DNA of 64,000 nucleotides from Candidatus Poribacteria bacterium (GCA_965222225.1 CBDCTK010000002.1:1056001-1120000), one strand, 5' to 3'; positions 5,772-46,632 are shown, counted from the first letter of the stretch. Made by a program: numbers and translations. Notes: generated by a model not told the origin, from the sequence alone.

Positions 5772-6059
5772 TTACTTCTGATACCAAATTTCGCCATGCA
5801 CTTCAACGATATCAACAATCGCCATAATAACCGCATCAACAGGCTTGTCTTTGGTGGCTGTTGTTTGCCGTGCGGAGCTTCCTGTTGCAACCAGCACCAA
5901 TTCACCAATTCCGGCGCCAACCGCATCTACCGCCGCATTATATGTCTTGAGTAGATTACCATCCAAATCCACGTCTTGGATAATCATCAACTTACTGCCG
6001 ACAAGCTTCGCGTCTTTTTTGGTGGCAACAATTGTTCCCGTGACTTTCCCAAGCGTCAT
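5772..6059 (-). CDS. eutN: EutN/CcmL-family microcompartment vertex protein (BMC-P)
   Basis: GKVTGTIVATKKD, AVDAVGAGIGELVLV, GSSAR, PVDAVIMAIVD. Confidence 0.93.
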   Translation of the reverse strand: MTLGKVTGTIVATKKDAKLVGSKLMIIQDVDLDGNLLKTYNAAVDAVGAGIGELVLVATGSSARQTTATKDKPVDAVIMAIVDIVEVHGEIWYQK

Positions 6060-24837: not shown

Positions 24838-25320
24838 TTAAGAGCTAGGCATCGTTGGAACTCCATTGGGGCCTACGAAGAACTCATTCATTTGGTCAAT
24901 GTATTTCTTTCCGTGTTTCAGGAGCGCACGGTTCATTTCGTAGAGTAGGGAATCTGATAGATCGTGGTAGGGATCAACAAGCTTTTTATAGCAATCAAGT
25001 GCACGTCGGAAAAAATCCAAAGTTTCGTCATCAATGGAACCACTTTGCCAGATGAGATAGAAAGAGCGGGATTTGTTGTGTGGAAGTTGTTCTCCTCTGC
25101 TTTCGATGAAAACGTGGTTTATATCAATCACTCGCTGTAGAATCATCGAAAAACAGCTTTTTACGAAGGAGTGCGTCAAACCATCTGCTGCAACATACTC
25201 GTGCTTGCTAGCGGGCAACACCTTTGCCAACTGTGTGAGACACTCCTGCATGGAAGCAAGCTTGCCTTTGACTGGGTTATATGAACTATTCGCCGAATTA
25301 CGATTGTCAACATGTGACAT
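24838..25320 (-). CDS. HepT/DUF86-like HEPN-fold protein (degenerate)
   Basis: Pattern ILQRVIDINHVFI...PHNKSRSFYLI..SG.ID...KKLVDPY; Rx4-6H motif not intact. Confidence 0.55.
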   Translation of the reverse strand: MSHVDNRNSANSSYNPVKGKLASMQECLTQLAKVLPASKHEYVAADGLTHSFVKSCFSMILQRVIDINHVFIESRGEQLPHNKSRSFYLIWQSGSIDDETLDFFRRALDCYKKLVDPYHDLSDSLLYEMNRALLKHGKKYIDQMNEFFVGPNGVPTMPSS

Positions 25321-30724: not shown

Positions 30725-32224
30725 ATGGGTAAAGCGACAGGATTCATCGAATACAGCCGAAAACAAAGTCACGATCGACCACCGGAAGAACGCATCAAAG
30801 ACTTCAATCTTTTTCATCTTACACTTGATGAGGAAGAACGCAGAATTCAGGGAGCACGTTGCATGGACTGTGGCATCCCTTTTTGCCAGTCTGCCACAGG
30901 GTGTCCAATCGACAACTTGATACCAGAATGGAACGATTTAATCTATCGCGGGATGTGGAAGGAAGCTTCAGACCGGCTCCATAAGACAAACAACTTCCCT
31001 GAATTCACAGGGCTAACGTGCCCGGCGCCGTGCGAAGGATCCTGTTGTCTAGGTATAATCGATCCGGCAGTAACAATTAAAGACAATGAATATGCAATCG
31101 TCAACCGTGGTTTTGAGGAAGGTTGGATTAAACCCACTCCCCCTCAGACACGGACGGGAAAAACAGTTGCCATCATCGGGTCAGGACCAGCCGGACTTGC
31201 GGCTAGCGATCAATTAAACAAAGTCGGTCACAAGGTAACCGTGTACGAACGAGCCGACCGCATCGGTGGTCTGTTGATGTATGGGATTCCCAACATGAAA
31301 CTGGATAAACGTATCGTGCAACGTCGACTTGACATTATGGCAAAGGAAGGTGTTGAGTTTGTTACCAACGCTAATATAGGAGTTAATGTCGACATAGATA
31401 CTTTCCGCCAAGAGTTCGACGCGATTGTGCTTGCCTGCGGTGCAACCCACCCACGTAATTTGCCGGTTCCCGGGCGAGAACTTGAGGGAATCCATTTCGC
31501 AGTTAAATTCTTACACCAAAACACTAAGAGTCTATTGGATTCCAACTTTGAAGATAGACAATTCATTTCTGCCAAGGATAAGCACGTGATCGTGATTGGT
31601 GGCGGGGACACTGGCAACGACTGTCTCGGTACATCAATGCGGCACGGCTGTGGGAGCCTGACCAACTTCGAGATACTTCCCGAGCCTCCTGTCGAGCGTG
31701 CCCCTAACAACCCTTGGCCAGAGTATCCACGAATCTACCGTGTAGATTATGGACATGAGGAAGCGGCTCACGTATTTGGTAAAGACCCACGTGAATTCTG
31801 CATAGTGACCAAAGAGTTTGTCGGGGACGGAAGCGGCCGTGTCAAAATCGCCCATACGGTACGCATTGAATGGACAAAGGATGCCGCAGGTAAATTTCAG
31901 ATGAAAGAGATTCCCGGAAGCGAAGAGGAATGGCCCGCCGACCTTGTATTCCTCGCAATGGGTTTCCTTGGTCCGGACGAAACGCTTGTCAAGCAATTTG
32001 GCTTAGAAACCGATGATCGATCGAATATGAAAGCGGAATACGGAAGATTCGCTACCAGCGTTGAAGGCATTTTCGCTGCTGGAGATTGCCGACGAGGCCA
32101 ATCGCTAGTCGTCTGGGCAATTGCCGAAGGCCGCGGTGCGGCGCACGCTGTGGATAAATACTTGATGGGCTCTTCTGACCTACCGATTCCCGGTGTATCG
32201 CTTTCGGACATAAGCAGAATGTAA
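30725..32224 (+). CDS. gltD: Glutamate synthase small subunit
   Basis: [36 protein letters not shown]. Confidence 0.97.
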
Positions 32225-32287
32225 GTCAATCTTCTCCCTTGATTCCCGTCTCAAACTCCTTTCACAACTCACAACTGTATGTAAGCG

Positions 32288-32327
32288 GGCACAAAAAAAG
32301 GCAGCCTTAAGCTGCCTTTTTTGTGCC
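32288..32327. terminator. Bidirectional intrinsic terminator
   Basis: GGCACAAAAAAAGGCAGC-cttaa-GCTGCCTTTTTTGTGCC between convergent gltD and exbD. Confidence 0.85.
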
Positions 32328-32348
32328 TATGTGTGGTTTAAGGTAGAA

Positions 32349-32768
32349 TCAAGTCTCCTCTGAAACCGCTAGAGCGATTTCCTGCCCTTCTGGTTTACTG
32401 AAACGCTGCTTCGCACGTTCCATAACATCTATCACGACTCCGTGTTCCGCCCGTCTGTCCGCCTTAATTATCAGTGTACTAATTTTATTTTCGTTCGCTG
32501 CCAAGAACAAATCAAGATCTTCAAGAGATAGCATTTCCTGATCGTCTACGGACAAACGACCATCTTGACTAATGAAAACGTTGAATTTCTTCCTTGGGAA
32601 TTCATGCTGAGTAGCTGAATCAGGCAAACTCACTGAAAACGGCGGCGGGATACGCATAATTGCCGAAACCATAAAGAAGATTAAGAGCAGAAACACGCAA
32701 TCAATCATCGGAGCCATCGGTATATCTTCATCTCTATCTTTCTGTTTCCGACGTCCACTTCCAGCCAT
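32349..32768 (-). CDS. exbD: ExbD/TolR-family protein
   Basis: APMIDCVFLLLIFFMV with the conserved TM Asp; IKADRR..HG.VIDVM. Confidence 0.9.
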   Translation of the reverse strand: MAGSGRRKQKDRDEDIPMAPMIDCVFLLLIFFMVSAIMRIPPPFSVSLPDSATQHEFPRKKFNVFISQDGRLSVDDQEMLSLEDLDLFLAANENKISTLIIKADRRAEHGVVIDVMERAKQRFSKPEGQEIALAVSEET

Positions 32769-32798
32769 ATTGAAATCTCCTTTCCTAATTGCTCGCGA

Positions 32799-33254
32799 CT
32801 ATTCTCTCGCTACAACCGCAAAACCTACCTTATCAATACCTGCTTGCTTCGCCCTATCCATGATCTGAACAATTTGTTCGTGCAATACTTTTCGCTCCGA
32901 TTGAATAATCAGCATGTTCTTCGCTTCTTCAGTCGCGTTGATTAATAGACTAAACATCTGTTCAATCTCGACGATTTCGTCGTTCAGAACCATGATTCCC
33001 TCTCGCTGACCGGCTGTCGGGTTAGCAATTCGCACAATGAGCCCTTTGGGTTTTTCAGTATTCGGCTTACCTGGCGGAGGAAGCTGTACCCGAATTCCCG
33101 GCATTGGCGAGAAAGTGGTCGAAACCATGAAGAAAATTAAAAGCAGAAACACACAATCAATCATCGGTGCCATACTGAGAGTTGGCGCTTTTCTCTCTCT
33201 AAGTCTTGTGGAAAGCACTGTTTGTTTCTTCACGCTGCTCGCTACCTGTTGCAT
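32799..33254 (-). CDS. exbD: ExbD/TolR-family protein
   Basis: APMIDCVFLLLIFFMVSTTF; IVQIMDRAKQAG; AGGAGG RBS before MQQV. Confidence 0.9.
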   Translation of the reverse strand: MQQVASSVKKQTVLSTRLRERKAPTLSMAPMIDCVFLLLIFFMVSTTFSPMPGIRVQLPPPGKPNTEKPKGLIVRIANPTAGQREGIMVLNDEIVEIEQMFSLLINATEEAKNMLIIQSERKVLHEQIVQIMDRAKQAGIDKVGFAVVARE

Positions 33255-33385
33255 ATTGACACCTCCTTTCATTCAGATGACAATCCAAGACCGGAAACTT
33301 CTGAAACGTTGTCCGATGTAAAGTTTGTTGGGAATCTATTGTTTTTTTGACAACGAGAGATTCCCAACAAGGCAATGGCGTAATA

Positions 33386-34393
33386 CTATGCGGCGCCCTC
33401 TTGGCCAAGAACAAGCTGGTTAACGATTTCTGTTGAAACCTGACCAATCTCAAGAACATACCTGTTGACCCAACTATCAAATAGCTGATAGAAGATCAAG
33501 CAAGGAATCGCGATGGTGAGACCTGCCGCGGTTGTTAACAAAGCCTGAGAAATACCCCCTGCCAACTGTTGCGGATCGCCAGTACCCTCCAAAGCAATTG
33601 TCGTAAACGCGTTGATCATACCGGTAACGGTTCCCAAGAGACCAAATAGTGGTGAAACGACTGCGATTGTTCCAAGCACCGGAAGATTCTTTTCCAATTC
33701 CGGAGTCTCAAGCAATTCGGCTTCCTCAATGGCTTCCTGTATCTCGTCCTTGGTGATTTCGCGTTCTTCAATTTGTGCCTGACTGAACCTCAACAATCCT
33801 GCCTTTAAGACGTTAGCAAGCGGCCCACCGGCATCCTCGCATGTAGAAACGGCTTCCATTATGTTTTCATTGCGGAGCGAGTCTGTAATGCTAGCCATGA
33901 ATTGTTCCGCACCGATTTTCGACCTGGCCCGGGCAAAAGTAAAGAATCTTTCAATAATAAACGTCAGAGCTGTAACAGAACAGAGCGCTAGTGGCCAGAA
34001 GACAAATCCCATCTTTTGAAAGAAGGTAACTATGTTGTCTTTCTTGGTCATTTTCAGGGGAAAATACCTGTCACCGCCAGCAACCACATTTACAGGTTTA
34101 CCTACTCTGTCTCCGTAGCCGTCTTTAAAAATACTGATAAAGTATCTGCCGGTAGGTAGATTAGTAATTTCGTATTCCCCAGCATCATCTGTCATTCCCT
34201 TGTATTCTGTCCCAGCGACATCTTTTATAATCACCTCAACTCCCGGGATAGGGGCGCGCGCGCTCGTAGTATCTTCAATCGCTCCGCGTACTGTACCACC
34301 CCCACCGGACACATCTGCTTCTTGGGCAACGGAGATAACGCTACCCATCGCTGAGAGAATCGTAATAGTTAAAATTAAACTCAACCGTTTCAT
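33386..34393 (-). CDS. exbB: MotA/TolQ/ExbB proton-channel protein with an N-terminal carboxypeptidase-regulatory-like domain
   Basis: Signal peptide; PIPGVEV..TDDAGEYEITNLPTGRY..KDGY domain; SPLFGLLGTVTGMI and GISQALLTTAAGL. Confidence 0.88.
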   Translation of the reverse strand: MKRLSLILTITILSAMGSVISVAQEADVSGGGGTVRGAIEDTTSARAPIPGVEVIIKDVAGTEYKGMTDDAGEYEITNLPTGRYFISIFKDGYGDRVGKPVNVVAGGDRYFPLKMTKKDNIVTFFQKMGFVFWPLALCSVTALTFIIERFFTFARARSKIGAEQFMASITDSLRNENIMEAVSTCEDAGGPLANVLKAGLLRFSQAQIEEREITKDEIQEAIEEAELLETPELEKNLPVLGTIAVVSPLFGLLGTVTGMINAFTTIALEGTGDPQQLAGGISQALLTTAAGLTIAIPCLIFYQLFDSWVNRYVLEIGQVSTEIVNQLVLGQEGAA

Positions 34394-34591
34394 ATTTGCC
34401 TCCTTTTAGTTGAACAAGAACTTTCAGAATATTTATGCAAGTAGTTGGTACTTTATCCTAAGATTCTTTCTAGATTTGGCGGTTTCGCTATTAGATATCG
34501 CTTTTCTAGGCTGAAATCCTCAATCTACCAAGCAAGACGTTGCTATAAACACCTGCATCTTTGAGAAGTTGCGCTTAGTACCAAGAAAAAT

Positions 34592-34626
34592 GCTCTCCCC
34601 TAGCCAGTCATCACCAAGGGGAGAGC
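34592..34626 (-). terminator. Intrinsic terminator-like hairpin after the 1113-aa gene
   Basis: GCTCTCCCCT/AGGGGAGAGC stem followed by ATTTTTCTT on the minus strand. Confidence 0.65.
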
Positions 34627-34644
34627 GTAGAGAAACAACAGTGT

Positions 34645-37600
34645 TTAGAATCCCATCATGGCACGAACAAATGTCGTGTTGCTTGTTGTATCTTCAAGCA
34701 AAATGGTCGTTCGTCTGTAACCTGCGAGTATTACGATATTAAATCCAAGCCATTCACCGCGGTTGATTGCTTGAATTTCGAAGATTCGTGTCCGTAGGTT
34801 GGGACGAAACAGGATGGGTACTTCCTCATCTGATGGGAAGTTTGTCAAGAACGCCTTGAAGTTGCTATCGCGGTTGGTGAATTTGCGATATTGAAAACCG
34901 CCAAGAACGTTCATTCTCTGCGTGAATTGGTAATCTAGACGAACCCCCAGAACATCTTCGCGACTTCTCTTGTTGAATCGAAGGTACTCTATCGGTTCAA
35001 TGTCTGTGGGAACGTACAGGCGTGGATTGAGCGGTGAGACATATACACCGGCAGCAATTTCATCGGCAGTGTGGTCGAACACTTTCTCCCAGATATATTT
35101 AGCCATCGGTGTGACCGTCAAGTCTTCGCCTATATTTTTCACGAAGTCCAAATCTCCCAACGGGATTTCATATTTCGCCCGCAAGATAGTCACTTGGTTG
35201 CGGATATTTTTTTCATCGTACCGTCGGGGTTTCCAATTGTCCTGATCATAAATCAACCCGGTATCTCCGCCATCCAATGGGTTGATTCCATGGTCGGGAT
35301 AGAACGGGAATTCTCGTTTTTCACCCGAATCACGTACCTGTTCAATCGGTACCATGAAATCAGTGCGCTGATTCCGCTCATTACCGGTTCGGGTCGCTTC
35401 CTCATCATCTACCCGATCTAATGCGATGGCATCTTGATCATCCGGTTGAAATTGCTTCTGCAAGGCAACTAGGAACTTTGCTTCTAGTGTTAAGTTCGGA
35501 ATTGCCGTATAGAGAAATTGGAGAGCGGTAGTGTTCACTCGTGAGTTGTAGAAATCAAGTTCGTCAGATATCTGAACAGGTTCGAGTTCTCCAACACGTA
35601 AGGTAATCGAATAATCCGGAATGTCGTCCTTAACACGGACGAGGCGGTTTTGGAATAAAATTGTTCCAAAGTCCGGAATATCACGCTGGTAGGTGACATG
35701 GAAATACCTTGAGTCGTTTTGACGCCGACTAGAAACCTCACTCTCGTTCAACCATCCGACCTTAAGCGTCATGTTGTCGAGTATGTCATAGCTGGCAACT
35801 AGGTGGTATCCCTCACGATCAATTCCGTACTCGTACTGTGGCTCAAAATCATCTTCTAGCGAATCGATTGTTCCGTTGTTGTTTAGATCGACAAGATCCG
35901 TGAAGACGGGCGGATCCGCTTCAAAGATAAGAAAGTCTTCCTGAAAGTCTAGGATTCCATTCTGGTCGCGATCGTCAGCACGTGGCAGAACGCCATCGAA
36001 ATCAATGTCATCTGGCCAATCATCATCATCATCATCGTCTTCGATAAGCTGATAATCGATTTCATCAAATGGATCGACCTCTGACGAAGATTCGGGAGTA
36101 CGAGGCAAGGAGTACGCCTGATCTCTATCACTATTGGCGCCCCAATTCCGATACGTCGTTGTATATCCGGGGTCAATATGATAGAAAGTTTCCTCTAGGA
36201 ACAGCTTCCCAAAACGTTGTTTAAGATTTACAAACCAAGCAACTTCGCGCCCTAATTCCCCATCTCCATCTTCAGGAGTGCCATCACCGCCTAATTTGGC
36301 TTCGAATTTCTCTCCTTCAGTTTCCGAATAGGTAGCCACGCCATTCGCATCTCCCGGCAGCAGAGTGCGGCGGTCAACACTAATGCCCGTTGACTCCACA
36401 CCATCAGGGGTAGTAATCTCCTCCTTCAGACGGCTAAAGCCAACCTTTTCCTTGGGAACGGTCGGGTACTGCTTATGCTTGCTGTTAATCGAGTAATGCG
36501 CCCGTATGAAAGTGTTGAATAGGGTACCTTCAAGATCGAGCCCGTACAGAATCGCCGCACGGGCGGCACCGTAGCGGTAGTGGATTTTTCGAGGTCTTCC
36601 CTCATCAGTCCATTGGCTTGGGTTATAGGCGAGGCTATCGCGGTTTTCAGCATACTCAGAAGATTGGCCGTAATTTCCAGGGGCTTCGATTACGTCCCGA
36701 AATGGCATCTCAATATGGCCATCCTCGGTTTTAATCCATTCCTGTAATTCCGGATCGTCCTCAGCCTTGTTGGCTTCACTAAAGCCCATAACGACGATGT
36801 TATAATCACCGGCAACCACCAAATCAAACTCGACTGATTTGACTTGTCGCGGATCAATATCGTGATCGGCGAGGACTAGGTCATACTTCATCGCGTGGAA
36901 TCCCTCAACAATCTTCCAAAGACTGTCTTCAGAGTTGCGTGGTGGCCTACTACCCGTAACAGCAGTGATATCCGAATTGAGGTCGAACGATCCATTTGCA
37001 GCACTGATTACAGTAGTCTCCTCGGGCAAAAGTCCCGGCTCGACACCTGCGATACGATCAGTTCGAGAGATTACCTCTTGCGCCTGAGTAACAATCGTCA
37101 CCTTAATATCCTTGACTGCCGCTCCAACACCTCCATGAACTAGGTCGGCATCCCGGGTGGGGCTCAGACCCAAAAACGCCCTCGGGTGGTTATCCTCTGG
37201 CGAATCATCGCGGAAGACTACGGTAATGTGCTCGGGCGGCGTGTTTGGCACCGTACCCAGCAGCGGATTTTCAACTCGTTCCGGGTGTTCCTTGTGCAAA
37301 TTCATGTAGGTAACACCTACGCGGAAAATATCGCCTAGAAGCCCTTGAGCGCGAAAGCCTATTAAACGGGCATTCTCAATATGACGTAACTGTGCATCAT
37401 CGTTTAAGCCATTTCTACGACCAAGTGTCGGTGCAAGGTTGGCTGCCGCGTCTGAAAGTCTAACAGGGTTAGAAATACGTGAATTCAGCAAGGTAAAGAG
37501 GTGTCGTTCCTGTGAAAAAGAAAGATCCCACCTAAACCCATCAAATTCTGTTTTGAATATGATGTATCGGTTAGGGAACAGCGTAGAAGGCTTGATACGC

Positions 37601-37986
37601 ATGTTATCACCGATTGCGAACTCGCTATGCCTGCCTCGGAAGCTATCCGTAGTGAGAATTGTACGGTCCAATTGCGCGGAAAATCTTTCGCTATCAAGCT
37701 GACCAGTCCAACCAACGATTAGCTCACCGTTCTGATCGAATTCTTTCCGTTCTCGGTAATTAAAAACCTCATTACCCTCAAGCAACTCTTTTCCAAACAG
37801 GTCATAGAAGAATTGGGGTTCTTCTTCCAATTGGAAACGATCGGAGAACTTTGACTGTCCTTCAATCGTTGGTAGCAAAGGTTCTTGAGGCCCTAGACTT
37901 GACGCCCCACAACCGTACAAGATGAAACAACTCAAGATACATGCAATAATAGAAACAGCATTTAACCACCGTTTCAACATTTTCAT
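34645..37986 (-). CDS. Large hypothetical lipoprotein, probable outer-membrane beta-barrel with Ca-binding loops
   Basis: 1113 aa; lipobox LYGC; DRDQNGILD and DLNNNGTID loops; poly-Asp tract; amphipathic strands; ends TTFVRAMMGF. Confidence 0.7.
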   Translation of the reverse strand: MKMLKRWLNAVSIIACILSCFILYGCGASSLGPQEPLLPTIEGQSKFSDRFQLEEEPQFFYDLFGKELLEGNEVFNYRERKEFDQNGELIVGWTGQLDSERFSAQLDRTILTTDSFRGRHSEFAIGDNMRIKPSTLFPNRYIIFKTEFDGFRWDLSFSQERHLFTLLNSRISNPVRLSDAAANLAPTLGRRNGLNDDAQLRHIENARLIGFRAQGLLGDIFRVGVTYMNLHKEHPERVENPLLGTVPNTPPEHITVVFRDDSPEDNHPRAFLGLSPTRDADLVHGGVGAAVKDIKVTIVTQAQEVISRTDRIAGVEPGLLPEETTVISAANGSFDLNSDITAVTGSRPPRNSEDSLWKIVEGFHAMKYDLVLADHDIDPRQVKSVEFDLVVAGDYNIVVMGFSEANKAEDDPELQEWIKTEDGHIEMPFRDVIEAPGNYGQSSEYAENRDSLAYNPSQWTDEGRPRKIHYRYGAARAAILYGLDLEGTLFNTFIRAHYSINSKHKQYPTVPKEKVGFSRLKEEITTPDGVESTGISVDRRTLLPGDANGVATYSETEGEKFEAKLGGDGTPEDGDGELGREVAWFVNLKQRFGKLFLEETFYHIDPGYTTTYRNWGANSDRDQAYSLPRTPESSSEVDPFDEIDYQLIEDDDDDDDWPDDIDFDGVLPRADDRDQNGILDFQEDFLIFEADPPVFTDLVDLNNNGTIDSLEDDFEPQYEYGIDREGYHLVASYDILDNMTLKVGWLNESEVSSRRQNDSRYFHVTYQRDIPDFGTILFQNRLVRVKDDIPDYSITLRVGELEPVQISDELDFYNSRVNTTALQFLYTAIPNLTLEAKFLVALQKQFQPDDQDAIALDRVDDEEATRTGNERNQRTDFMVPIEQVRDSGEKREFPFYPDHGINPLDGGDTGLIYDQDNWKPRRYDEKNIRNQVTILRAKYEIPLGDLDFVKNIGEDLTVTPMAKYIWEKVFDHTADEIAAGVYVSPLNPRLYVPTDIEPIEYLRFNKRSREDVLGVRLDYQFTQRMNVLGGFQYRKFTNRDSNFKAFLTNFPSDEEVPILFRPNLRTRIFEIQAINRGEWLGFNIVILAGYRRTTILLEDTTSNTTFVRAMMGF

Positions 37987-38291
37987 TTTTTCTTGCCTCC
38001 ATGAAGTAAATTGGATTTATTTTGAAACCGACGAAAATAAGTGATAAGAAGAGTAAACAACAGAAAGCAGATACCTGTTAATTAATACAAGACCAATCTT
38101 TGCAATAATCGCCTGACTCCATAAGCACTATATTCCATCCCAAACTACACCGAGAAAACAGTATCCGCGAAACCTACTGTTGGCTAACTTTTGATTCCTC
38201 CATATAGGGGGAGCAATGCCTACCTGCGGTGCCCTCAAAGTTCGCTGTCAATTACAGGAGAACATAAGTGAGTTTCAACAAATGGACTTTT

Positions 38292-38320
38292 AAGATATCA
38301 CTTCTGGTAATATCTGTCAA
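38292..38320 (-). promoter_or_regulatory. sigma70-type promoter for the 1113-aa gene
   Basis: TTGACA-17bp-TATCTT with an A-rich UP-like tract; implies a leader of about 300 nt. Confidence 0.6.
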
Positions 38321-38557
38321 GACTTTTTTTTGACTAAAAGAAGTTTAACCGTTTGTATCGGATTGTATCGGATTTGTGCGAAGAACCCTCAATTATGAGA
38401 TTGAAAATCCGATGACCACTCGCGTTGATTGTAGAGAATCATGAACATACACCTACTTACACCAAGGCAACATTTCAATGCGAGTTTGAGTTCCCTTGGC
38501 GAGGCCGTTGGACACCGGGAAGCCATCAGTGGTCCAGAGATAACCCCTGAGTGTTGG

Positions 38558-40666
38558 TTAAGTCGTTATAAACCCATGAAGGGAAAGATTACCGCGAGTT
38601 ATTCGATCGCGAGTTGTCCTCAAGGATTGGCGTGAGTTCGCGGCGAGATTAAGGATTAATACAATTGCATCGGCGTGAATGCCTAGAGCGAGTCCATCAA
38701 CCGACGAAAGAAGTGGCGACGCATCAAGTAATATCAGTTCATAATGTTCACGGAACTGCTCAAAGAGTGCTTGTAGGCGGGGTGAGTCAAGCAATTCGAT
38801 TGGAGTAGACGCAACACTTCTGATACTGAATAAATCGACATTCGCGATTTCAGTCTTCTGAATAGCTCGCTGCCAATCTGTAAGCGCATTAATCGGTGCA
38901 GATTGTCGGACAGAATCAGATGGTACACCGAATATCTCATGCTGCTTTGGTGCGATTACACTGCAGTCAACGACTAGGACAGGGGCTTTCACCAAAGCCA
39001 GTGTAACTCCTAGATTAGCCGTAATTACAGAAACGTGGTCGTTGTAATCACATCCTGCGAACATTAATACTTGCTTACTGATCTCGGGATTTGTCAGATT
39101 GATGTATGCAGCGATTTCTTGATAAACTCCCGGAACAGCGTGAGATACTAGATCTGTTTCTTGCCGCTTCGGCACGTGCCCCAAATGCATTATGCCTATG
39201 TCAGATTCCACTTCTTTTGGCGAGCTATAGGTCGTACTGAAATACTCCATGAGTATGGCAATAGAAACTCCCAGCGTCAAACCAACGATACCGGCTATCG
39301 CTACGATTGCCTTGACACGGGGACTCGTGGGAATCTTCCGAGGCACCGCGCCGTCAACGACTCCAAGACCTCCTATGGTATTTCCAGCATTTGATGTAGC
39401 ATGCGACGGATCCGATTCGGCGATTAAGATCCGTGTCTGCAGAATTCGTGTGAAGGTCTCTTTTGTCAACTCGTGCTTGAACTCGATCTCCCGCTTCATT
39501 TTGTCAAGCGACAGCTCATTCTCGGGTATGCTGCCAAGCAGTTGTTCCAACTCAGTTTCGACTGCTTCGAGTTGAGTTTTGACCAGTGGAAGGTTATGTT
39601 GTGCTCGGAGAATGCTTGCTTGTAGATTTATTAAGCCCTGCTGAACAGTATAATATAGCGGATCTGCTCCATGAGTCGTCGCGGTAACGGATTCAGCCGA
39701 TAGACTGAAGGACAATCTGTTCTTGACATCTTCAATTTGGGCTTTGATGGACTTCAATCCGGGCGCGTTCTCACCCACATCAGAAGCAATCAGCCCGATT
39801 TTTTGACTCTCAAGAGCGATTAGTCTCTCCATTTGAGACAACCAGATAGGATTAGCGCCTACCATCTCCGTGAGTTGCGTATGTACTGGGTGCTGCTTAA
39901 TCTCTGCTCGCAAGTGTTCCAATACCTTTTGAGAGGCGCCAATTGCCAATTCGAGCTCTTCTAGTTTCCCTTGGAGTTGCGCACGTCGCGAGGACGCACT
40001 AGAGAGTCTTTCTCGCCAGGTTCCAGGACCGCCATTTTTCCGAACAAACTCGGACGCTTCGTGTTCTTTTTTCTCTACCTCATCCTGCAATTCTTTCATT
40101 GTATCTCGTAGTAATTGGTGGCGTTGCTTCAAATTGGCAGAGTCCTGCTTTCGGCGGTACTCTTGCATCTCAGCGACTAACTGATTGGTCAGGAGAGCCG
40201 CATTGCGCTCGCCGCCTTCCTCTTCGGAAAGATACAGCGAGAGCTCAATATACTGCGAGTCTGAGCGGCTCTTTGATTTGAGATTTCGCCTCAATTTCCC
40301 GACTGGGGGCAAGTAGCGAGCACCGCCGACTTCCGATTCCTCTAGCTGTTCAATAGCCGCCGTTATCATAGACTCCGAAAGAAAGCGTTGACCGACAGTT
40401 TCCATCTCGCTTCGGTCAACTCCACCGGAAAGGACACTTTGAACAACATTGGCGGATGGTATTGGTGTGCTTGATGCTGGTTGGTCAAATTCCAGTAGCG
40501 TAGAAGCTACGTACGTTTTAGGCAGGTGTAAACTAACTACGAGAGCAGTACCTACAAGCAACAGAAAACACAAGCATATAATAAAATCGTACTTCCGTAT
40601 TACAGAGAGGTAATCCCGTAAGTGGACCTCTTTTTGAGGCATCGAAATCGTATTTCCTTCCTCCAT
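38558..40666 (-). CDS. Wzc/GumC-like polysaccharide co-polymerase with a degenerate kinase domain
   Basis: EVHLRDYLSVIRK, PKTYVAS, long coiled coil, second TM helix, VLVVDC, ILLDASP; Walker A absent. Confidence 0.82.
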   Translation of the reverse strand: MEEGNTISMPQKEVHLRDYLSVIRKYDFIICLCFLLLVGTALVVSLHLPKTYVASTLLEFDQPASSTPIPSANVVQSVLSGGVDRSEMETVGQRFLSESMITAAIEQLEESEVGGARYLPPVGKLRRNLKSKSRSDSQYIELSLYLSEEEGGERNAALLTNQLVAEMQEYRRKQDSANLKQRHQLLRDTMKELQDEVEKKEHEASEFVRKNGGPGTWRERLSSASSRRAQLQGKLEELELAIGASQKVLEHLRAEIKQHPVHTQLTEMVGANPIWLSQMERLIALESQKIGLIASDVGENAPGLKSIKAQIEDVKNRLSFSLSAESVTATTHGADPLYYTVQQGLINLQASILRAQHNLPLVKTQLEAVETELEQLLGSIPENELSLDKMKREIEFKHELTKETFTRILQTRILIAESDPSHATSNAGNTIGGLGVVDGAVPRKIPTSPRVKAIVAIAGIVGLTLGVSIAILMEYFSTTYSSPKEVESDIGIMHLGHVPKRQETDLVSHAVPGVYQEIAAYINLTNPEISKQVLMFAGCDYNDHVSVITANLGVTLALVKAPVLVVDCSVIAPKQHEIFGVPSDSVRQSAPINALTDWQRAIQKTEIANVDLFSIRSVASTPIELLDSPRLQALFEQFREHYELILLDASPLLSSVDGLALGIHADAIVLILNLAANSRQSLRTTRDRITRGNLSLHGFITT

Positions 40667-40814
40667 TGATGAGCGAAGAACTCTTGCTCCCTTCGTTGTC
40701 TTAAGCTGAATTCAATTGTCATCCCGGTTAACGATTGTACAGCACTTATGCTAATTGGCAGAGTTTTAGCCGGATACCAACGATTATTGGACACGGCGGA
40801 GAACCATTTGTCAT

Positions 40815-41378
40815 CTAGCGCGCCACCTCAATCTGTTCTTCGCTATATGCTTCATCAATCCACTCCGTAATACGCCATTCACTGTCTCTCAGTTCAAAGA
40901 TAAACAGATTATCCCCTTCGGCATACCATCCCGTATATCCACCTTCAAGAGATTCACCGTCGGCGACAAATCCTTGAATCCTATAATGAACTCTCACTTC
41001 GGCTCTGTTACGCTCCGCGTTTAACTCCATCTCGGGGGGCTCTTCCAACTCAATCTCAATGTCTTGGTACAAGCGGAACACTCGAACTGCTGAATCTCTT
41101 TCATCTCGAATGTCGTCAAAAATCACATCATCCGTTGCATCGTCAGGTGTTCCCATATCCGATACATAACGAAACTTGTCCGCCCAAAAAACATCTATGT
41201 ATGCACTTACATCTTCAGTTTCATACCCGGTACGCCACGCTTTCAACACCGCTTCAATCGCACCCAGCTCTTGAGACCGGGGTGCACCGATCTTCTCAAC
41301 ATCACCGCAACTCAAAAAACCTAACGTCACAGCCATCGTGAGTATTAAACTACCTGCTTTGGAAAATATCTTAAACAT
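40815..41378 (-). CDS. NTF2/SnoaL-like lipoprotein
   Basis: Lipobox FLSC; WRTGYETEDVSAY; FELRDSEWRITEW; GGAGG RBS. Confidence 0.7.
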   Translation of the reverse strand: MFKIFSKAGSLILTMAVTLGFLSCGDVEKIGAPRSQELGAIEAVLKAWRTGYETEDVSAYIDVFWADKFRYVSDMGTPDDATDDVIFDDIRDERDSAVRVFRLYQDIEIELEEPPEMELNAERNRAEVRVHYRIQGFVADGESLEGGYTGWYAEGDNLFIFELRDSEWRITEWIDEAYSEEQIEVAR

Positions 41379-41518
41379 TACTGACAACCTCCACAACACG
41401 TTTTCATCCGAGGACAATTGAACTTCAACTAGCAATAACGGTTAGACAAACTCGCTCTCTCCACTAACAATCTGCCTAATATTTCCTGGCAATGCCATTG
41501 ACTAAAACCGCTCTTCTT

Positions 41519-42037
41519 TCAAAAAGTCTTTCTTAGATTCAAATATAATTTTGTCGGTGTTACACCGACACTCACGCCTAAATTCTCAATTTCCTTAGCT
41601 TCATCAATGAGTAAATTGACTTTTGCATTTGCGTTATAGAACTTGGCGCCAACGTACGAATCAATAACGCTATACGCCCATACACCGATAGCAGTGTACA
41701 AGAAGAACTGTCTAATTTTGTAGCGCTCGTTTGAGCTCTTGTATTGTGCAATTGCTTCCTCGGATTTCGGGTCTATAGTTGCGGCGGGAATGTACCGATT
41801 TGTATGGATGTTCTGAAAGGACTGATGTGCCGCTAAGGCGCCCGCAAGAGATGCCCCCACTCCTATCACCGAAAATGTTCCTCGAATCGGACTGCGCGAA
41901 TAATACTGTCCCCATCCAGGCATGATCGCCGATCGAACAATGGAACCAACTGGAGATATGAGGCGGAGTTCCTCTGATTGGGCGAAGCAAACCTGCGCGA
42001 AAGCCGAAAAGAAAAGAGTAATCGTCAGAATCTTCAC
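41519..42037 (-). CDS. DUF5683-like membrane protein
   Basis: Signal peptide; SAIMPGWGQYY; WAYSVIDSY; C-terminal Phe. Confidence 0.7.
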   Translation of the reverse strand: MKILTITLFFSAFAQVCFAQSEELRLISPVGSIVRSAIMPGWGQYYSRSPIRGTFSVIGVGASLAGALAAHQSFQNIHTNRYIPAATIDPKSEEAIAQYKSSNERYKIRQFFLYTAIGVWAYSVIDSYVGAKFYNANAKVNLLIDEAKEIENLGVSVGVTPTKLYLNLRKTF

Positions 42038-42197
42038 TTAGCACTACCCAGTAATTCCCTGTATAACTTAATCGCTGCAACCTTCGCAACTATACAATGA
42101 TAACGAATGTCGAATCTGCTGTCAACAAAAAAAATCTGCAAACAACCCATGGGACACGCTATGTGTTTGCATGAATACCTCAAAAACAATAATGATG

Positions 42198-43766
42198 CTA
42201 TCTTCTTCGACGGCTTGATGTGCGTTCTGTGTTACGCGTACGATCGTTCGAACGATTCTCCTGATCGTCATCATCACTACTACTACTTGCGCTTGACGAC
42301 TGGCGACTTGGAGCCGCTGATACTCTTGGGCGTGATGGGGTTGAAGAGGTACTCGACTTAGTCGAGCGGGTGCGAGAAGGTACTGAAGATGCGGTTTGCT
42401 TTCGTTCCGACCTTGAGCGGAAGTTGGACTCTCTTGGTGATGATGCGCGAGCCTGACCGGAGTAAGTTTTCGAACGATTATACAGTTGCGTGCGTCGTTC
42501 CGCATTCGAGCGTACGCGACTATTTTTCTTACTGTCTTGCAGAGCGGTCCCGCGAGAATCTGTTGACCTTCGGTTATCGGGCGACCTACGGTAAGAACCT
42601 ATGGAATTGAATCGATCTCCCAGTGTGTTTGACCTAGTACGATAACTCGTTCGCTTTCGCTTAGTCGAAATGGTTGCACTTTGCTCTACTTGATCGCTCA
42701 AGACCGGTTGCTGAGCACGATGCTTTTCAATAACCGAACGGACTCTAGGTTGGACATTTACCTGCTTAGTCGCTTTACGCGCTACCGATAATCGACTCCT
42801 ACTGTATTGGCGACGGACATTTTCGTGCTCCTGACTCCATTGATTTAGTTGTGTCCGCCTCTTTTTTACCGAGGACTTGGGCCCAACATAAACGTATCTC
42901 GGGTTTGAATATGACCGATAAGAGTATGTTGGATAATACGTGTAGTAACGATGGAGGTAATTACCGTAGGAATAGCGAACGGCGTAGTAGTGGCGATCGT
43001 AGATTGGGTAACTCCACCGGATATAGTAGTCATGGTCTGTTGCATAGTAGCACGGACCGTCGTAAAAATACAGGTAGGTGTAGTGGTGCCAAGGACGCCA
43101 TTCATAGCTCCTTGCGTATCGGTGATACCTTTGAATATGACGCTGTTGTCGGTAAGTAACAACATCAATGTACTCTATATCAAGTTGCTCGCCATCTTGG
43201 GCGACAACATGCATCTCAAGAAAGCCGTTACCAACGTGGCCTGCAGCGGGAATCTTAATCGTTTCCGAGCGGCGCTTTGCTCTTAACGCGAACGTATCAC
43301 CGTAGCGTGTTTCATCAGCATGTTTGTCATCATAACCGCGTCGTGTGTATTCACGTTTAGTATTACGAATCCAAACACGTCCGGCAATCGATTCGTAATC
43401 CTCAATGTAGGGCTCGTTGGGATCTCCCCGGTAACGCACCAATATCTCAATGTATTGAGCTTGTGCAGGAATCTCAAAGAAGTATACTGCGCTGGCTATA
43501 GCAAATTCGTAATCATCCTCTTGAAAATTCTGGCTTGCCCAAGCCGTCAAGCGGGCACCTTCTTCAAAGTGAGGACTTGCGTTAATTGTTGCGTTGCCTC
43601 GTTCAATCCACTCATCCACATCGTTGCCTGCCCGATGTTCGCGGCTTAGCCGATTCGAATAGTCACTGTAGTCATAGTCAACTTGGCTTACCGCCGGTAT
43701 AGCAAGCATAAAGAGGCAACTTAACAGCGCCAACGGACCCAAAATGTTAATTCGGACGCTCATCAT
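42198..43766 (-). CDS. Secreted hypothetical protein with a Tyr-rich segment and an Arg/Ser-rich low-complexity tail
   Basis: AGGAG RBS before MMSVRIN; signal peptide; strong composition bias. Confidence 0.75.
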   Translation of the reverse strand: MMSVRINILGPLALLSCLFMLAIPAVSQVDYDYSDYSNRLSREHRAGNDVDEWIERGNATINASPHFEEGARLTAWASQNFQEDDYEFAIASAVYFFEIPAQAQYIEILVRYRGDPNEPYIEDYESIAGRVWIRNTKREYTRRGYDDKHADETRYGDTFALRAKRRSETIKIPAAGHVGNGFLEMHVVAQDGEQLDIEYIDVVTYRQQRHIQRYHRYARSYEWRPWHHYTYLYFYDGPCYYATDHDYYIRWSYPIYDRHYYAVRYSYGNYLHRYYTYYPTYSYRSYSNPRYVYVGPKSSVKKRRTQLNQWSQEHENVRRQYSRSRLSVARKATKQVNVQPRVRSVIEKHRAQQPVLSDQVEQSATISTKRKRTSYRTRSNTLGDRFNSIGSYRRSPDNRRSTDSRGTALQDSKKNSRVRSNAERRTQLYNRSKTYSGQARASSPRESNFRSRSERKQTASSVPSRTRSTKSSTSSTPSRPRVSAAPSRQSSSASSSSDDDDQENRSNDRTRNTERTSSRRRR

Positions 43767-43990
43767 AATCTCTCCTAAAACGGAATGGGCTTTATATACC
43801 CAAAGAAATAATCTAGATGCCATAGCCGCCATGAACAATTACCAAAGAACTACATGGTTATAGAAGCGAGTTCGGTCCGCCTCCAATCTCTGTTTTCAAC
43901 CTGTAGTAATAGTGGTACAAACTGTCGCAAAACTGATACTTTTTCCCGAATTATGCATTATTTGAAGAAGGAATTGTCATATTAGATTTG

Positions 43991-44371
43991 TTATTTGGCT
44001 TTGGCATCAAGCTTAAGGCCTTTCCAATCTGCTACGTCCTTGTCCTGTGGTGTAATAATCGCAGGCTTATCAACCATCAACTCCCGGATAATCGGAATAA
44101 GGCCGGTAAGAACCAGTGTGCAAATCATTGTCTCGTCTTGTCTAGTGTCACTACATACCACGACTCAAAGATACTTCGTCGCCCAAAAACACGTGAGCAC
44201 ACTTACAGTCCTTACAATTTCAATGCCAAGTTTCAGTAGAGTCTTGACGAAATCCTTCCTAGTTGAAAATATCACTGATGGATTCTCTAGCACTCAAGGC
44301 TCTTCGCGAAAATCATCGGATGCGGCAACTACAATCTCATTGGCGAGAATCGCCTAGATTAGCGCTTTCAC
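43991..44371 (-). pseudogene. Possible degraded ORF of unknown family
   Basis: One minus frame reads VKALI*AILANE...KPAIITPQDKDVADWKGLKLDAKAK* with three internal stops. Confidence 0.2.
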
Positions 44372-44565
44372 AATATCACGTTCTCCAACACACTTTTCAA
44401 GCTGATAAAGCGAAGCGCTAGATTCACTTAAGCCGCATCAAATATTGCTAACGCCAGCTTATCCGCTGCGAATGCAGGTGGATATTTAGGGCTGCCGTAA
44501 GGTTTCTTCCACGACGCTTTCGGCATGTAGGGAAAGATTGCGAGCCTTGATGATGGAAGACACGT

Positions 44566-45273
44566 TTAATCTCGCAATAGCTCAACCGCTTCACCGCCAC
44601 GTAATCCCGCGGCATTTGAATCGTCAGTGTCTAAATGCATCTGCAGGACGTAGGAGGAGGAAATTTTTGGTCGGATGTTTTCAAGCGTTAAAGCACGTTC
44701 ACCAGAAATTCGCACCTTTAACAAATCGCCTTCTTCTACCCCGAAAGATGTTGCAATTTGGGGAGTCATATGAACGTGCCGAGTCGCGCATATCGCGCCT
44801 TCGTTCAAGTAGACCGATCCTGCTGGTCCGATCAGGCTTATTGGTTCTGAGCCCGTGAGATCGCCTGAATCGCGAATAGGTGGATCCAGCCCCAATCGAA
44901 TGGCATCCGTGCGTGCAAGTTCTACCTGTGTATAGTCTCTCGCCGGGCCCAAGATTCGCACACCCTCAATTGACCGCATCCGTCGTCCAACCACGGTCAA
45001 CGTCTCCTTTGCGGCAAACGCTCCCGGTTGATACAACGGTGCAAGAGTGGTTAATTGATGTCCCTTCCCGTAAAGAACGTCTAGGTGCTCTTGGGAAACA
45101 TGGGCGTGCCTCGCCGAAACGCCAACAGGAATCTTCTTTTGGGAGATTGCGGCATCGCAGGCGCGTTGGCCCGCATCACAAACTCGCAAGGCACAACCGC
45201 TACAGGATTGTTCGCCGCCAATCTGCTCTAATACCTTGCGCGAAATTGTTTCAATTAACGCCTGGTCTCGCAT
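44566..45273 (-). CDS. pduL: Phosphate propanoyltransferase PduL with an N-terminal encapsulation peptide
   Basis: VGVSARHAH, LYQPGAFAA, RILGP.R..TQVE, RHVHM, MHLDTDDSNAA. Confidence 0.93.
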   Translation of the reverse strand: MRDQALIETISRKVLEQIGGEQSCSGCALRVCDAGQRACDAAISQKKIPVGVSARHAHVSQEHLDVLYGKGHQLTTLAPLYQPGAFAAKETLTVVGRRMRSIEGVRILGPARDYTQVELARTDAIRLGLDPPIRDSGDLTGSEPISLIGPAGSVYLNEGAICATRHVHMTPQIATSFGVEEGDLLKVRISGERALTLENIRPKISSSYVLQMHLDTDDSNAAGLRGGEAVELLRD

Positions 45274-45291
45274 GCGTGATGGACCCTAGTT

Positions 45292-45621
45292 TCAACTTGA
45301 TGAATCTTCGCCATTCAGGCCAAGGGGCAACGCAGGCTCATTCTCCGAGAACGAAGGTAGAATCGATTCAACTTCCGCATGCGGTCTCGGGATTACGTGG
45401 ACTGAAACAACTTCACCGATCTTTGCAGCTGCTTCCGCTCCGACATCGGTCGCGGCTTTTACCGCTCCAACATCGCCGCGTACCATAACGGTCACATAAC
45501 CGCCGCCAATCTTTTCATATCCGACAAGCTGTACATTTGCGGCTTTTACCATCGCGTCCGCGGCTTCTACACTTCCCACCAAACCTCTCGTTTCAACTAA
45601 GCCCAATGCATCTCCAGCCAT
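45292..45621 (-). CDS. eutM: BMC-H hexameric shell protein (EutM/PduA-like)
   Basis: [39 protein letters not shown]; exact ortholog not resolvable. Confidence 0.9.
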
Positions 45622-45704
45622 ACTTTATCGTTGCCTCCTCAAACTCCCATATCTAATCTGAAAGGTTTTGTGTCAATAAATCCTTAAAAACCCAATTGCA
45701 TGCC

Positions 45705-45733
45705 AGTATATCACAATGTTCTTGGTGATTCAA
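45705..45733 (-). promoter_or_regulatory. Extended -10 sigma70 promoter for BMC-H and pduL
   Basis: TTGAAT-17bp-TATACT with a TG extension. Confidence 0.55.
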
Positions 45734-45812
45734 CCGAAACTGCGTTACACCATCTTCAGTTATAATTCCCCTGAATCCTTCCGCTTAGACTTGTTGCAAC
45801 GCGCATAAACTA

Positions 45813-46632
45813 GGTTCTGTTGACATTTGGTCATAAGGTTGTGGCATGATATAAGCATTATGCAAATAACTTTGCCTGATGACCAATGGGAAAAAATCTA
45901 CCAGTTTCTTTTAAGCCGTTCCAACATCTATGTCCGCAACGAAGCGGCAACCTGACGATTCGTCGAAGCTGTGCTGTGGGTGGCTCGTAGCGGTGCCCAA
46001 TGGAGACTTTTGCCTATCGCCTATGGCAATTGGAACTCCATCCACAAGCGGTTTGGCCGGTGGTGCGACAAAGGCGGCTTCACACAGATGCACAATCACT
46101 TCGATTCTGAGCCAGATATGGAGTGGCTTATTGTTGACAGTACCGTTTGCCGGGCTCATCCATGTGCGGTTGGTGCCTCAAAAAAAACGGTGGTACTGAA
46201 GACCAAGCGCTAGGCCGCTCTCAAGGCGGCTTCAGTACAAAAATCCACACCACAGCTGACGGATTGGGTAATGCTCTTAGAATCCATCTAACACCCGGTC
46301 AGAGACACAACATAATTGAGGCAGAAGCGTTAATAGTCGGATATAACTGCGAGTATGTTATTGGAGACAAAGAGTACAACTCGCACGATTTTATCGACGC
46401 TATTGAGGCGAATGGTGCAACGGCGGTGATACCTTCTCGACGTAATCGTGACAGCCAAAGAACATATGACAAACATCTATACAAAGAGAGACATCTGGTT
46501 GAATGTTTCTTCAACCAGATAAAATGGTATCGTCGTATCTTTTCTCGTTTCGAGAAGCGGGCTGTTCGTTATTTTGGATTTCTAAGTTTTGTCTCTACTC
46601 TCATCTGGCTCCGTTGAAATGTCAACAGATCC
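45813..46632 (+). mobile_element. IS5-family (IS427-like) insertion sequence
   Basis: TIRs GGTTCTGTTGACATTT / AAATGTCAACAGATCC; TA duplication in a CTAG context; 820 bp. Confidence 0.9.
45860..46617 (+). pseudogene. IS5 transposase (two frames joined at an A-run) with a premature stop
   Basis: [40 protein letters not shown]; in-frame TGA at 45953-45955; A-run near 46180-46187. Confidence 0.85.

Follow-up and report, generated by a model that had tools for sequence, protein, structure and literature searches.

Proton-energised machines of the bacterial envelope include the Ton, Tol, Agl-Glt and type IX systems, and in Myxococcus a motor of one TolQ-like and two TolR-like proteins (AglR/Q/S) drives Agl-Glt gliding and Nfs spore-coat assembly. 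Here we describe a locus of Poribacteria, which are dominant sponge symbionts. We analysed a stretch of 64,000 nt from a Candidatus Poribacteria bacterium (GCA_965222225.1 CBDCTK010000002.1:1056001-1120000; hereafter the window), in which the block at positions 32349-37986 encodes an ExbB/TolQ-type protein, two ExbD/TolR-type proteins and a protein of 1113 amino acids (aa), predicted to be an outer-membrane barrel, that we call BIG; the name also covers its family. We tentatively read BIG and the ExbB/ExbD motor as one conserved functional module, an energised envelope machine that handles surface proteins, and give this a little less than an even chance of being right. The reading is based on five families shared with operons of distant phyla and on a dedicated transducer encoded in those operons.

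The motor genes and the block itself have been published. The block belongs to the stretch that Jahn et al. 2016 named "BMC-A genomic region" (PMC5087111; this and the other papers given here by PMC number are cited from part of their text), BMC standing for bacterial microcompartment. In that work, transcription in sponges is high for two ExbDs and a "MotA/TolQ/ExbB plus carboxypeptidase regulatory-like" protein, ExbD is immunolocalised to the cell membrane, and TonB-dependent import of B12 for a propanediol microcompartment is proposed. Motor-driven movement of outer-membrane proteins has also been described (PMC12635249). The barrel family is apparently undescribed; the literature searched yielded no description of it, of the cross-phylum operon reported below or of the DUF4159 TonB-like protein of that operon.

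Calling of open reading frames (ORFs) confirmed four ORFs at the coordinates of the block, all on the minus strand. They and the signals around them are as follows.

~32288..32327, minus strand: intrinsic terminator shared with the convergent gltD (folding energy against shuffles)
32349..32768, minus strand: ExbD/TolR paralog 2, 139 aa, membrane Asp23 (Pfam ExbD)
32799..33272, minus strand: ExbD/TolR paralog 1, 157 aa, membrane Asp39 (Pfam ExbD)
33386..34393, minus strand: ExbB/TolQ-type proton channel, 335 aa, with signal peptide and periplasmic CarboxypepD_reg domain (Pfam)
34586..34626, minus strand: terminator-like hairpin and U5, between the barrel gene and exbB
34645..37986, minus strand: BIG, predicted giant outer-membrane beta-barrel of an unnamed family (1113-aa ORF, AlphaFold2 model)
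35821..36048, minus strand: conserved acidic segment of BIG, residues 647-722, with two EF-hand-type loops (672-683 and 700-711)
37909..37986, minus strand: signal peptide of BIG with lipobox-like L-Y-G-C (Cys26; motif only)
38292..38320, minus strand: promoter-like site TTGACA-17-TATCTT, with TG, upstream of the barrel gene (consensus scan only)

To compare loci, we scanned one genome per species with a 12-sequence alignment as query, which gave 199 confirmed relatives of BIG. The locus counts below rest on the best 80 of these 199 (58 from Poribacteria and 22 from other phyla), and the 53/58 Poribacteria loci with at least 1.5 kb downstream of the barrel gene were taken as evaluable. In 35/53 evaluable loci, a same-strand exbB gene comes <1 kb downstream of the barrel gene, and at least two ExbD ORFs follow exbB in 34/35 of these, the remaining locus having a short flank. 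The first-pass annotation had treated the four genes as belonging together, and the recurrence of the barrel beside exbB-exbD-exbD in these loci leaves that proposal standing. The order in the motor-linked block is the 546-aa protein, DUF5683, the 206-aa lipoprotein, the co-polymerase-like gene, the barrel, exbB, exbD and exbD. The four genes ahead of the barrel appear in the window as follows.

38558..40666, minus strand: divergent Wzz/GNVR-type polysaccharide co-polymerase whose ATPase tail weakly resembles a tyrosine kinase (matches below curated cut-offs)
40815..41435, minus strand: 206-aa lipoprotein, no Pfam or NCBIfam family match, lipobox LSCG, conserved in the Poribacteria block
41519..42037, minus strand: DUF5683 protein (Pfam 5.6e-11, 43.1 bits vs a cut-off of 26.7)
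42198..43838, minus strand: 546-aa secreted protein, its tail Tyr/Arg-rich and Ser/Arg-rich, no family match, conserved in the Poribacteria block

Among the motor-linked Poribacteria loci, the co-polymerase-like gene precedes the barrel gene in most, and DUF5683 is found in 30/35, the other five having short flanks. PduL (29/35) and the BMC shell gene (28/35) also belong to these loci; neither occurs in any other fetched locus. Several departures from the common arrangement were seen. A third ExbD-like ORF follows the pair in some Poribacteria loci, and one carries the N-terminal part of ExbB as a separate ORF ahead of the full-length exbB (the ORFs concerned are L002 16924-17280, L027 15890-16246 and L005 13513-14016). 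In two loci, a short ORF that matches part of the barrel protein (L013 10001-10369 and L051 10001-10276) is found upstream of the full-length gene at a distance of 360-980 bases and may be a remnant or stem from a partial duplication.

The remaining 18/53 Poribacteria loci have no exbB within ~10 kb. In a FastTree phylogeny of 85 barrels, these 18 motor-less copies group with one unevaluable locus in one clade of support 100, which is nested among motor-linked copies, while the basal Poribacteria branches are motor-linked; the motor-less form is therefore a derived paralog. Both forms are present on three chromosomes (L003/L051, L008/L038 and L021/L032). The neighbours of the motor-less paralog are mostly WD40 propeller proteins, and in 11/18 loci it adjoins an ORF with a C-terminal domain of the FlgD-Ig/Por_Secre_tail type; one such locus, L026, gave TIGR04183 scores of 35.5, 32.2 and 30.2 bits vs a cut-off of 23.

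Outside Poribacteria, 9/22 loci have a same-strand exbB-exbD(-exbD) no more than 10 kb from the barrel, the nine coming from Ignavibacteria, Kryptoniota, Latescibacterota and Bacteroidota metagenome-assembled genomes. Here the barrel operon is tightly packed, with all genes on one strand and short intergenic gaps. It opens with an F5/8-type-C protein bearing a type IX-style C-terminal domain, followed by a PorV/PorQ-like barrel, BIG, a ~1050-aa TPR protein, a protein with DUF4159, ExbB, the ExbD(s), in some cases a PstS-like lipoprotein, a DUF4159 lipoprotein and, at the operon end, DUF5683. Thus, the neighbourhood recurs across phyla, and the families common to the window and to these operons are five: BIG, ExbB, two ExbD and DUF5683. 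An ORF with the C-terminal domain adjoins the barrel in 18/22 loci, the other four having <2 kb of upstream flank. The TPR protein was counted in 16 of the 22, DUF4159 in 12, DUF5683 in 6 and PorV-like homologs in 12; the PorV/PorQ-family barrel of L071 scores 86.9 bits with NF033709 (cut-off 90), and no PorV-like homolog was found in the window or in the Poribacteria loci L001-L003, L026, L029 and L038. The 13 loci without ExbB comprise 6 short contigs and 7 loci of Latescibacterota, a phylum in which the barrels stand in one to three tandem copies. In Latescibacterota L065, L066, L069, L070, L075 and L078 (at ~9.7-18 kb in each locus), two or three barrel paralogs follow one another head to tail, either 0-3 bases apart or slightly overlapping, and several C-terminal-domain proteins often flank them. 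We also considered the poribacterial 546-aa protein as a counterpart of the DUF4159 lipoprotein, which has the same position in the other phyla, and rejected it (hhalign probability 1.6%).

In the first DUF4159 protein of the other-phyla operon, the membrane helix contains a His kept in 8/8 sequences (S/AxxxH), and a Pro/Lys/Arg-rich stretch comes after it. In Ton transduction, the TonB His and its SxxxH motif are important. The AlphaFold2 (AF2) model of this anchored protein consists of a helix, ~160 disordered residues and a globular domain. Fold matches of this DUF4159 head were confined to an uncharacterised structure, Hoch_4089 (4i66, the best), and glutamine-amidotransferase-like folds, and so give no functional lead. 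By analogy of architecture, the protein appears to be a TonB-like transducer in the other phyla.

For BIG itself, neither Pfam nor NCBIfam gave a match at E<=0.01, and Pfam finds in it no Plug, TonB_dep_Rec, SLH or OmpA-like wall-binding domain. The AF2 model, made from a 70-sequence alignment, is almost all-beta, with 30 strands of at least 8 residues (mean predicted local distance difference test, pLDDT, 72.1; predicted template modelling score, pTM, 0.77). Its last strand ends at the C-terminal Phe, a residue kept as F in 53/55 Poribacteria homologs, and the acidic segment 647-722 is assigned no regular secondary structure. In a Foldseek search of the PDB, giant outer-membrane barrels were the best matches, all with a template modelling (TM) score <=0.33 and identity <=11%. 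The top match was SlpA/SDBC (7zgx_A; E 2.8e-9, probability 1.0, TM 0.22-0.24, identity 8-9%); SprA, the type IX translocon (8gl6_A), reached E 1.6e-6 and TMq 0.20, and MtrB, LptD, porins and receptor barrels were also matched. A family profile searched against all PDB chains gave no real match, the best (E 0.017) being a restriction enzyme, and all 30 nearest clusters in the ESM Atlas are unnamed. The fold class is clearly beta-rich, and the model supports BIG as a new, unnamed class of outer-membrane protein unrelated to the 22-strand TonB-dependent receptor. That the outer-membrane partner is a new protein class had been proposed in the first-pass annotation, with a standard 22-strand receptor as the alternative; the lack of a family match and a plugless model of ~30 long strands are in keeping with the proposal.

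An exhaustive phmmer search returned 279 family representatives at E<=1e-3 and 154 at <=1e-10, with full-length relatives of 850-1140 aa that are 21-27% identical over their whole length. All named homologs of the 1113-aa protein are entered as a "hypothetical protein" of Candidatus Poribacteria, and the named cluster members from Ignavibacteria, Bacteroidota, Gemmatimonadota and Latescibacterota are each labelled "hypothetical". Judged by sequence similarity, the family spans Poribacteria, Ignavibacteria, Kryptoniota, Latescibacterota and Gemmatimonadota. In a Pfam scan of 20 members, 18 were without a match and two had a sub-threshold SlpA_C (19.8 bits vs 35). A search for fused or longer forms of the barrel found none, a kind of evidence that the tool itself rates as weak.

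There are two family-wide peaks of conservation. One is an N-terminal YDxFG motif, where D62, G65 and G71 are invariant, and the other is the acidic segment, with near-invariant D/N columns across 70 members. The segment contains two loops, DRDQNGILDFQE (672) and DLNNNGTIDSLE (700), that fit a strict 12-residue EF-hand pattern (D-x-[DN]-x-[DNS]-G-x-[ILV]-[DE]-x-x-[DE]) for which 0.005 occurrences are expected in shuffles; at least one strict loop is kept in 38/70 family members. At the N-terminus, the lipobox-like L-Y-G-C ends at C26, with an unusual Tyr at -2. Boxes of the [LF]YGC type are present in 51/55 Poribacteria homologs and in 0/6 homologs of at least 1000 aa from other phyla, where the relatives have ordinary signal peptides. 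The protein had been annotated as a Ca-binding lipoprotein: the two EF-hand loops and the lipobox-like signal are there and both labels hold at the level of motifs, and BIG is probably lipidated.

Turning to the motor, the 335-aa protein matches Pfam MotA_ExbB (PF01618; E 6e-33, residues 192-315) and, ahead of this, CarboxypepD_reg (E 2e-12, 47.7 bits vs a cut-off of 32.3, residues 34-109), an N-terminal domain that is present in 17/17 aligned Poribacteria orthologs. A search for this fusion of ExbB and N-terminal domain returned 18 close Poribacteria-like proteins; being word-based, it cannot show absence elsewhere. The 157-aa and 139-aa proteins match Pfam ExbD (PF02472) with E 4.9e-24 and 3e-23, respectively. 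They are 35% identical overall, yet share an identical 18-residue membrane stretch, MAPMIDCVFLLLIFFMVS, which holds the membrane Asp. As had been annotated, both paralogs keep this residue, and it is invariant in 17/17 orthologs of each (D39 in paralog 1, D23 in paralog 2); we take it to be equivalent to E. coli D25. The best NCBIfam matches are TolQ (110.6 bits vs 221) and TolR (53.3 and 51.6 vs 127.3), and the ExbB equivalog is not reached either (82.7 bits vs 206.2).

Two hairpins bear on the transcription of the block. The one at ~32288-32327, 3' of the last exbD and facing gltD, has a folding energy of -27.4 kcal/mol (z -5.6; 0/200 shuffles equally stable) and looks bidirectional, with an A-run and a U-run on its flanks. 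The other, at 34592-34626, is followed by U5 and stands right after the stop of the 1113-aa gene (-23.3 kcal/mol, z -3.05, 1/200 shuffles). This fits the separate motor polycistron of PMC5087111, where zero transcript coverage on both flanks of the three motor genes indicated a polycistron of their own. Thus, the four genes probably make up two transcription units, with the barrel gene apart from the three motor genes, rather than one operon. The first-pass annotation described four co-oriented genes ending at one terminator; the shared strand and the strong hairpin at the end were confirmed, but the hairpin after the barrel gene disagrees with a single terminator. The number of promoter-like sites in the region was not above shuffle expectation in the consensus scan. 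Among RNA elements, 31500-46500 gave three chance-level matches only (E 0.68-0.85) and no cobalamin or other riboswitch, so the B12-import idea gains nothing from this search.

The window was scanned for transducers and receptors as 63 distinct ORFs: 41/47 of at least 150 aa, the 139-aa ExbD and 21 smaller ones located mostly outside genes (the 6 unscanned ORFs of at least 150 aa are antisense shadows within genes having strong matches). No Pfam match to TonB_C, Plug, TonB_dep_Rec or TolA was found among the 63, and neither the neighbours of the motor genes nor the window scans revealed TolA, TolB, Pal or CpoB. A proline-richness screen of the small ORFs in the window gave no credible proline-rich or TonB-like candidate. 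The motor had been called TonB-less. That is true of the 64-kb window, which has no TonB, TolA or receptor, but the description is a local one: a TonB-annotated gene is reported to be expressed elsewhere in a Poribacteria single-cell genome (PMC5087111).

The mechanism that we propose is inferred in four respects: that motor and barrel are physically coupled, what acts as the transducer in Poribacteria, which way transport runs and what the cargo is. The motor would be of the ExbB/ExbD (5:2) type, its two ExbD positions probably filled by the two paralogs, and proton flow through it would be converted to mechanical work. A periplasm-spanning transducer would pass this work to the barrel; in the other phyla this may be the TonB-like anchored DUF4159 protein of the same operon, and in Poribacteria either an unlinked TonB-like protein or the periplasmic domain of ExbB. 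The work would open or move the barrel, which would then export, expose or hold surface proteins with type IX-style C-terminal domains. Several barrel paralogs could share a single motor, much as one Ton motor works with many receptors.

We rank export or display of C-terminal-domain proteins first among the possible functions because the family's most constant neighbours are proteins of this kind and a PorV/PorQ-like barrel, and because Kamke et al. 2014 (PMC3909097) reported many poribacterial TIGR04183 proteins and no Por/T9SS structural genes in six single-cell genomes (T9SS, type IX secretion system). In its specific form, the barrel would be the translocon or moving platform of an unrecognised C-terminal-domain secretion/display system driven by ExbB/ExbD and not by GldLM/PorLM, which we regard as possible but doubtful. 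If true, it would give the missing export route for the C-terminal-domain proteins of Poribacteria (PMC3909097), the "core" loci with a motor would cooperate with "satellite" barrel paralogs linked to cargo, and the same system, with a DUF4159 TonB-like transducer, would exist in Ignavibacteria, Kryptoniota and Latescibacterota.

There is some chance, which we put on the low side, that barrel and motor are uncoupled neighbours, exbB-exbD-exbD being a general Ton/Tol-type motor that serves an unlinked TonB or TolA and BIG a passive or structural porin or an SlpA-like protein. Their separate transcription units speak for this, as do the TonB-annotated gene expressed elsewhere in a Poribacteria genome (PMC5087111), the best fold match to SlpA together with the weak SlpA_C in 2/20 members, and the barrels that have no motor nearby, namely the paralog and 7 Latescibacterota loci. 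Moreover, the whole block is syntenic, PduL (29/35) and the BMC shell gene (28/35) included, so that adjacency within the phylum could be inherited. However, at least four further lineages show the pairing again, in tight same-strand operons that have a dedicated TonB-like protein and wholly lack BMC genes. TolQ and TolR are the best NCBIfam matches of the motor proteins, but their scores are well short of the equivalog cut-offs and the window encodes no TolA, TolB or Pal; the barrel has neither an SLH nor an OmpA-like wall-binding domain.

We find it rather improbable that BIG is instead an energised importer, a plug-less analogue of a TonB-dependent transporter for a large or scarce nutrient, with F5/8-type-C and WD40 proteins catching the substrate in SusD-like fashion. 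Motor, TonB-like anchor and barrel do follow the logic of Ton uptake, some other-phyla operons have a PstS-family binding lipoprotein after the ExbDs, the upstream protein carries an F5/8 C domain of the carbohydrate-binding type, and TonB-dependent import of B12 was what Jahn et al. proposed for the region (PMC5087111). Of the Atlas clusters that bear a name, the nearest is a "TonB-dependent receptor-like" DUF6029 (score 0.88), a lead only. Nevertheless, no Plug or TonB box family is matched, no cobalamin or other riboswitch occurs in 31500-46500, and the window scans place no inner-membrane transporter gene in the block, whereas secretion-type C-terminal domains upstream and a PorV/PorQ-like barrel are a signature of export or anchoring. 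An envelope-spanning exopolysaccharide route, made up of the co-polymerase (Wzz/GNVR with its kinase-like tail) and the barrel, is very improbable. The upstream position of the co-polymerase-like gene in most motor-linked Poribacteria loci, and the label "uncharacterized protein exopolysaccharide synthesis" given to one gene of the region in a figure legend (PMC5087111), would agree with it. Yet the co-polymerase matches are all below curated cut-offs and the gene is absent from 22/22 other-phyla loci; the block has no Poly_export/Wza, flippase, polymerase or glycosyltransferase, and the window no Poly_export domain of a Wzx/Wzy-type export system.

Returning to a coupled module of barrel and motor, a number of observations count against it or against its secretion/display form. 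In Poribacteria, a terminator-like hairpin belongs to the barrel gene alone, and the motor genes form a polycistron apart from it. The 18 motor-less Poribacteria loci are joined by the 7 Latescibacterota loci, which have no exbB despite flanks of at least 6.8 kb on either side. A C-terminal-domain ORF is present in 0/36 motor-linked loci (the 35 of Poribacteria and the window), making the link between the motor-linked copy and the cargo indirect, and a profile of the TonB-like anchor detected nothing in the window or in any fetched Poribacteria locus. The reported absence of type IX genes rests on the incomplete single-cell genomes of 2014 (PMC3909097). The AF2 model of the barrel is of moderate confidence, with 268 residues at pLDDT <50, and the number of strands in the barrel wall and the side on which the acidic segment lies are estimates. 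Loci of one phylum are non-independent observations. Lastly, no experiment or interface prediction ties barrel to motor; the prediction run with ExbB 24-125, both ExbD periplasmic domains and barrel 27-100 scored 0.00 (mark 0.32), which is evidence neither way. The idea of an undescribed proton-driven envelope machine, put forward in the first-pass annotation, thus draws strength from a new barrel class and a conserved pairing and loses some to separate transcription units and a motor-less paralog.

If the coupling is real, it would add a new class of outer-membrane partner to the proton-energised machines and, in the other phyla, a new transducer in which a TonB-like anchor carries a DUF4159 head. 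It would also name a family of ~1000-residue proteins, "hypothetical" in all the records examined, from at least five phyla. The question left from 2014, of how Poribacteria display their many WD40 and other "eukaryote-like" proteins with Por-type sorting domains on the surface without a known type IX system, would become testable.

The other features of the window are given here for completeness.

5772..6059, minus strand: EutN/CcmL vertex protein, 38 kb from the other microcompartment genes
44566..45273, minus strand: PduL (PTAC; Pfam E 2.5e-66)
45292..45621, minus strand: BMC shell protein (PF00936, E 2.1e-30)
45930-46617, 59596-60615 and 62859-63713, plus strand: transposase genes or fragments (DUF4096 and DDE_Tnp_1 split over two ORFs; DDE_5; IS1595-type)
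9994-10719 and 54639-55385, minus strand: two PhyH-family dioxygenases
20600-23440, minus strand: 946-aa all-TPR protein
24838-25320, minus strand: HepT-like RNase toxin of a type VII toxin-antitoxin system (Pfam 1.7e-07, NCBIfam below cut-off)
56676-58288 and 60600-61904, minus strand: sigma70/WD40 ORFs

PduL, the shell protein and the vertex protein are the microcompartment components to which the region owes its published name. The first transposase (45930-46617) adjoins the BMC genes, and in the closest locus, L013, its place is taken by a partial ExbB-like ORF (L013 1646-2131). Three adjacent ORFs (Sigma70_r2, 118 aa; Sigma70_r4 with WD40, 295 aa; WD40, 114 aa) look like one sigma-factor-WD40 fusion gene broken by frameshifts or stops, and an intact sigma70_r2/r4 protein of 434 aa is encoded near them. 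PhyH-family dioxygenases have been reported as the most abundant domain family in Poribacteria (PMC3909097). The 946-aa TPR protein, on the same strand as the block and 9 kb downstream of it, has relatives in 1/35 motor-linked Poribacteria loci and in 7 other loci, matches that probably reflect generic TPR similarity; it is not a detectable homolog of the TPR protein in the operons of other phyla.

How, then, does the locus compare with described machines? With Tol-Pal it shares motor proteins whose best NCBIfam matches are TolQ and TolR, but their scores are half or less of the equivalog cut-offs, and TolA, TolB, Pal and CpoB are not among the neighbours. Deinococcus SlpA is the best fold match to BIG and is alike in size and strand number, with weak SlpA_C in 2/20 relatives, but the TM score is only 0.22-0.24 at 8-9% identity and BIG has neither the SLH domain nor the coiled-coil stalk. 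We know of no motor linked to SlpA.

With the Agl-Glt and Nfs machines, the window shares one TolQ-like and two TolR-like genes, a likeness of gene count only. The other-phyla operons go further, with TonB-like proteins, large TPR proteins, outer-membrane barrels and a surface protein. The likeness to AglR/Q/S noted in the first pass holds for this count, but no Glt or Nfs component turned up in general scans, which neither tested for these components nor compared Glt reference sequences. The only NCBIfam match to GltE was the 946-aa TPR protein, below cut-off and generic for TPR. The Glt barrels are ~four times smaller than the 1113-aa barrel, and to our knowledge motility is not known for Poribacteria.

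The type IX system offers a C-terminal-domain cargo whose genes adjoin the barrel, as they do for the motor-less paralog and in other phyla, a PorV/PorQ-family barrel (just under its cut-off) in the other-phyla operon, SprA as one of the best fold matches, a TPR protein of large size and a proton motor that follows the same superfamily logic. The pairing of cargo and barrel resembles that of type B C-terminal-domain proteins with PorP-like proteins (PMC9143113). The differences are that BIG has no sequence relation to SprA or any solved chain and about half the size of SprA, that the motor is ExbB/ExbD and not GldL/GldM, and that the window has neither a C-terminal-domain protein nor a PorV-like gene. 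No GldK/N, PorU or PorZ was found in the fetched loci, save a PorZ-type propeller domain on one neighbour, and Pfam scans of the neighbours, made without comparison of reference sequences, gave no GldLM/PorLM or GldKN/PorKN.

With the Ton system, the locus has in common the ExbB and ExbD domains, the retained membrane Asp and the pairing of the motor with an outer-membrane barrel, to which the other phyla add, encoded beside the motor, an anchor that crosses the membrane once and has a long linker and a conserved His. It differs in having no TonB_C in the window, a barrel without Plug and with ~30 predicted strands vs 22, two ExbD paralogs, an ExbB with an added periplasmic domain and, in the other phyla, a candidate transducer ending in DUF4159 with a glutamine-amidotransferase-like fold. 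A full member of none of these systems, it would work like the Ton, Agl-Glt and type IX machines.

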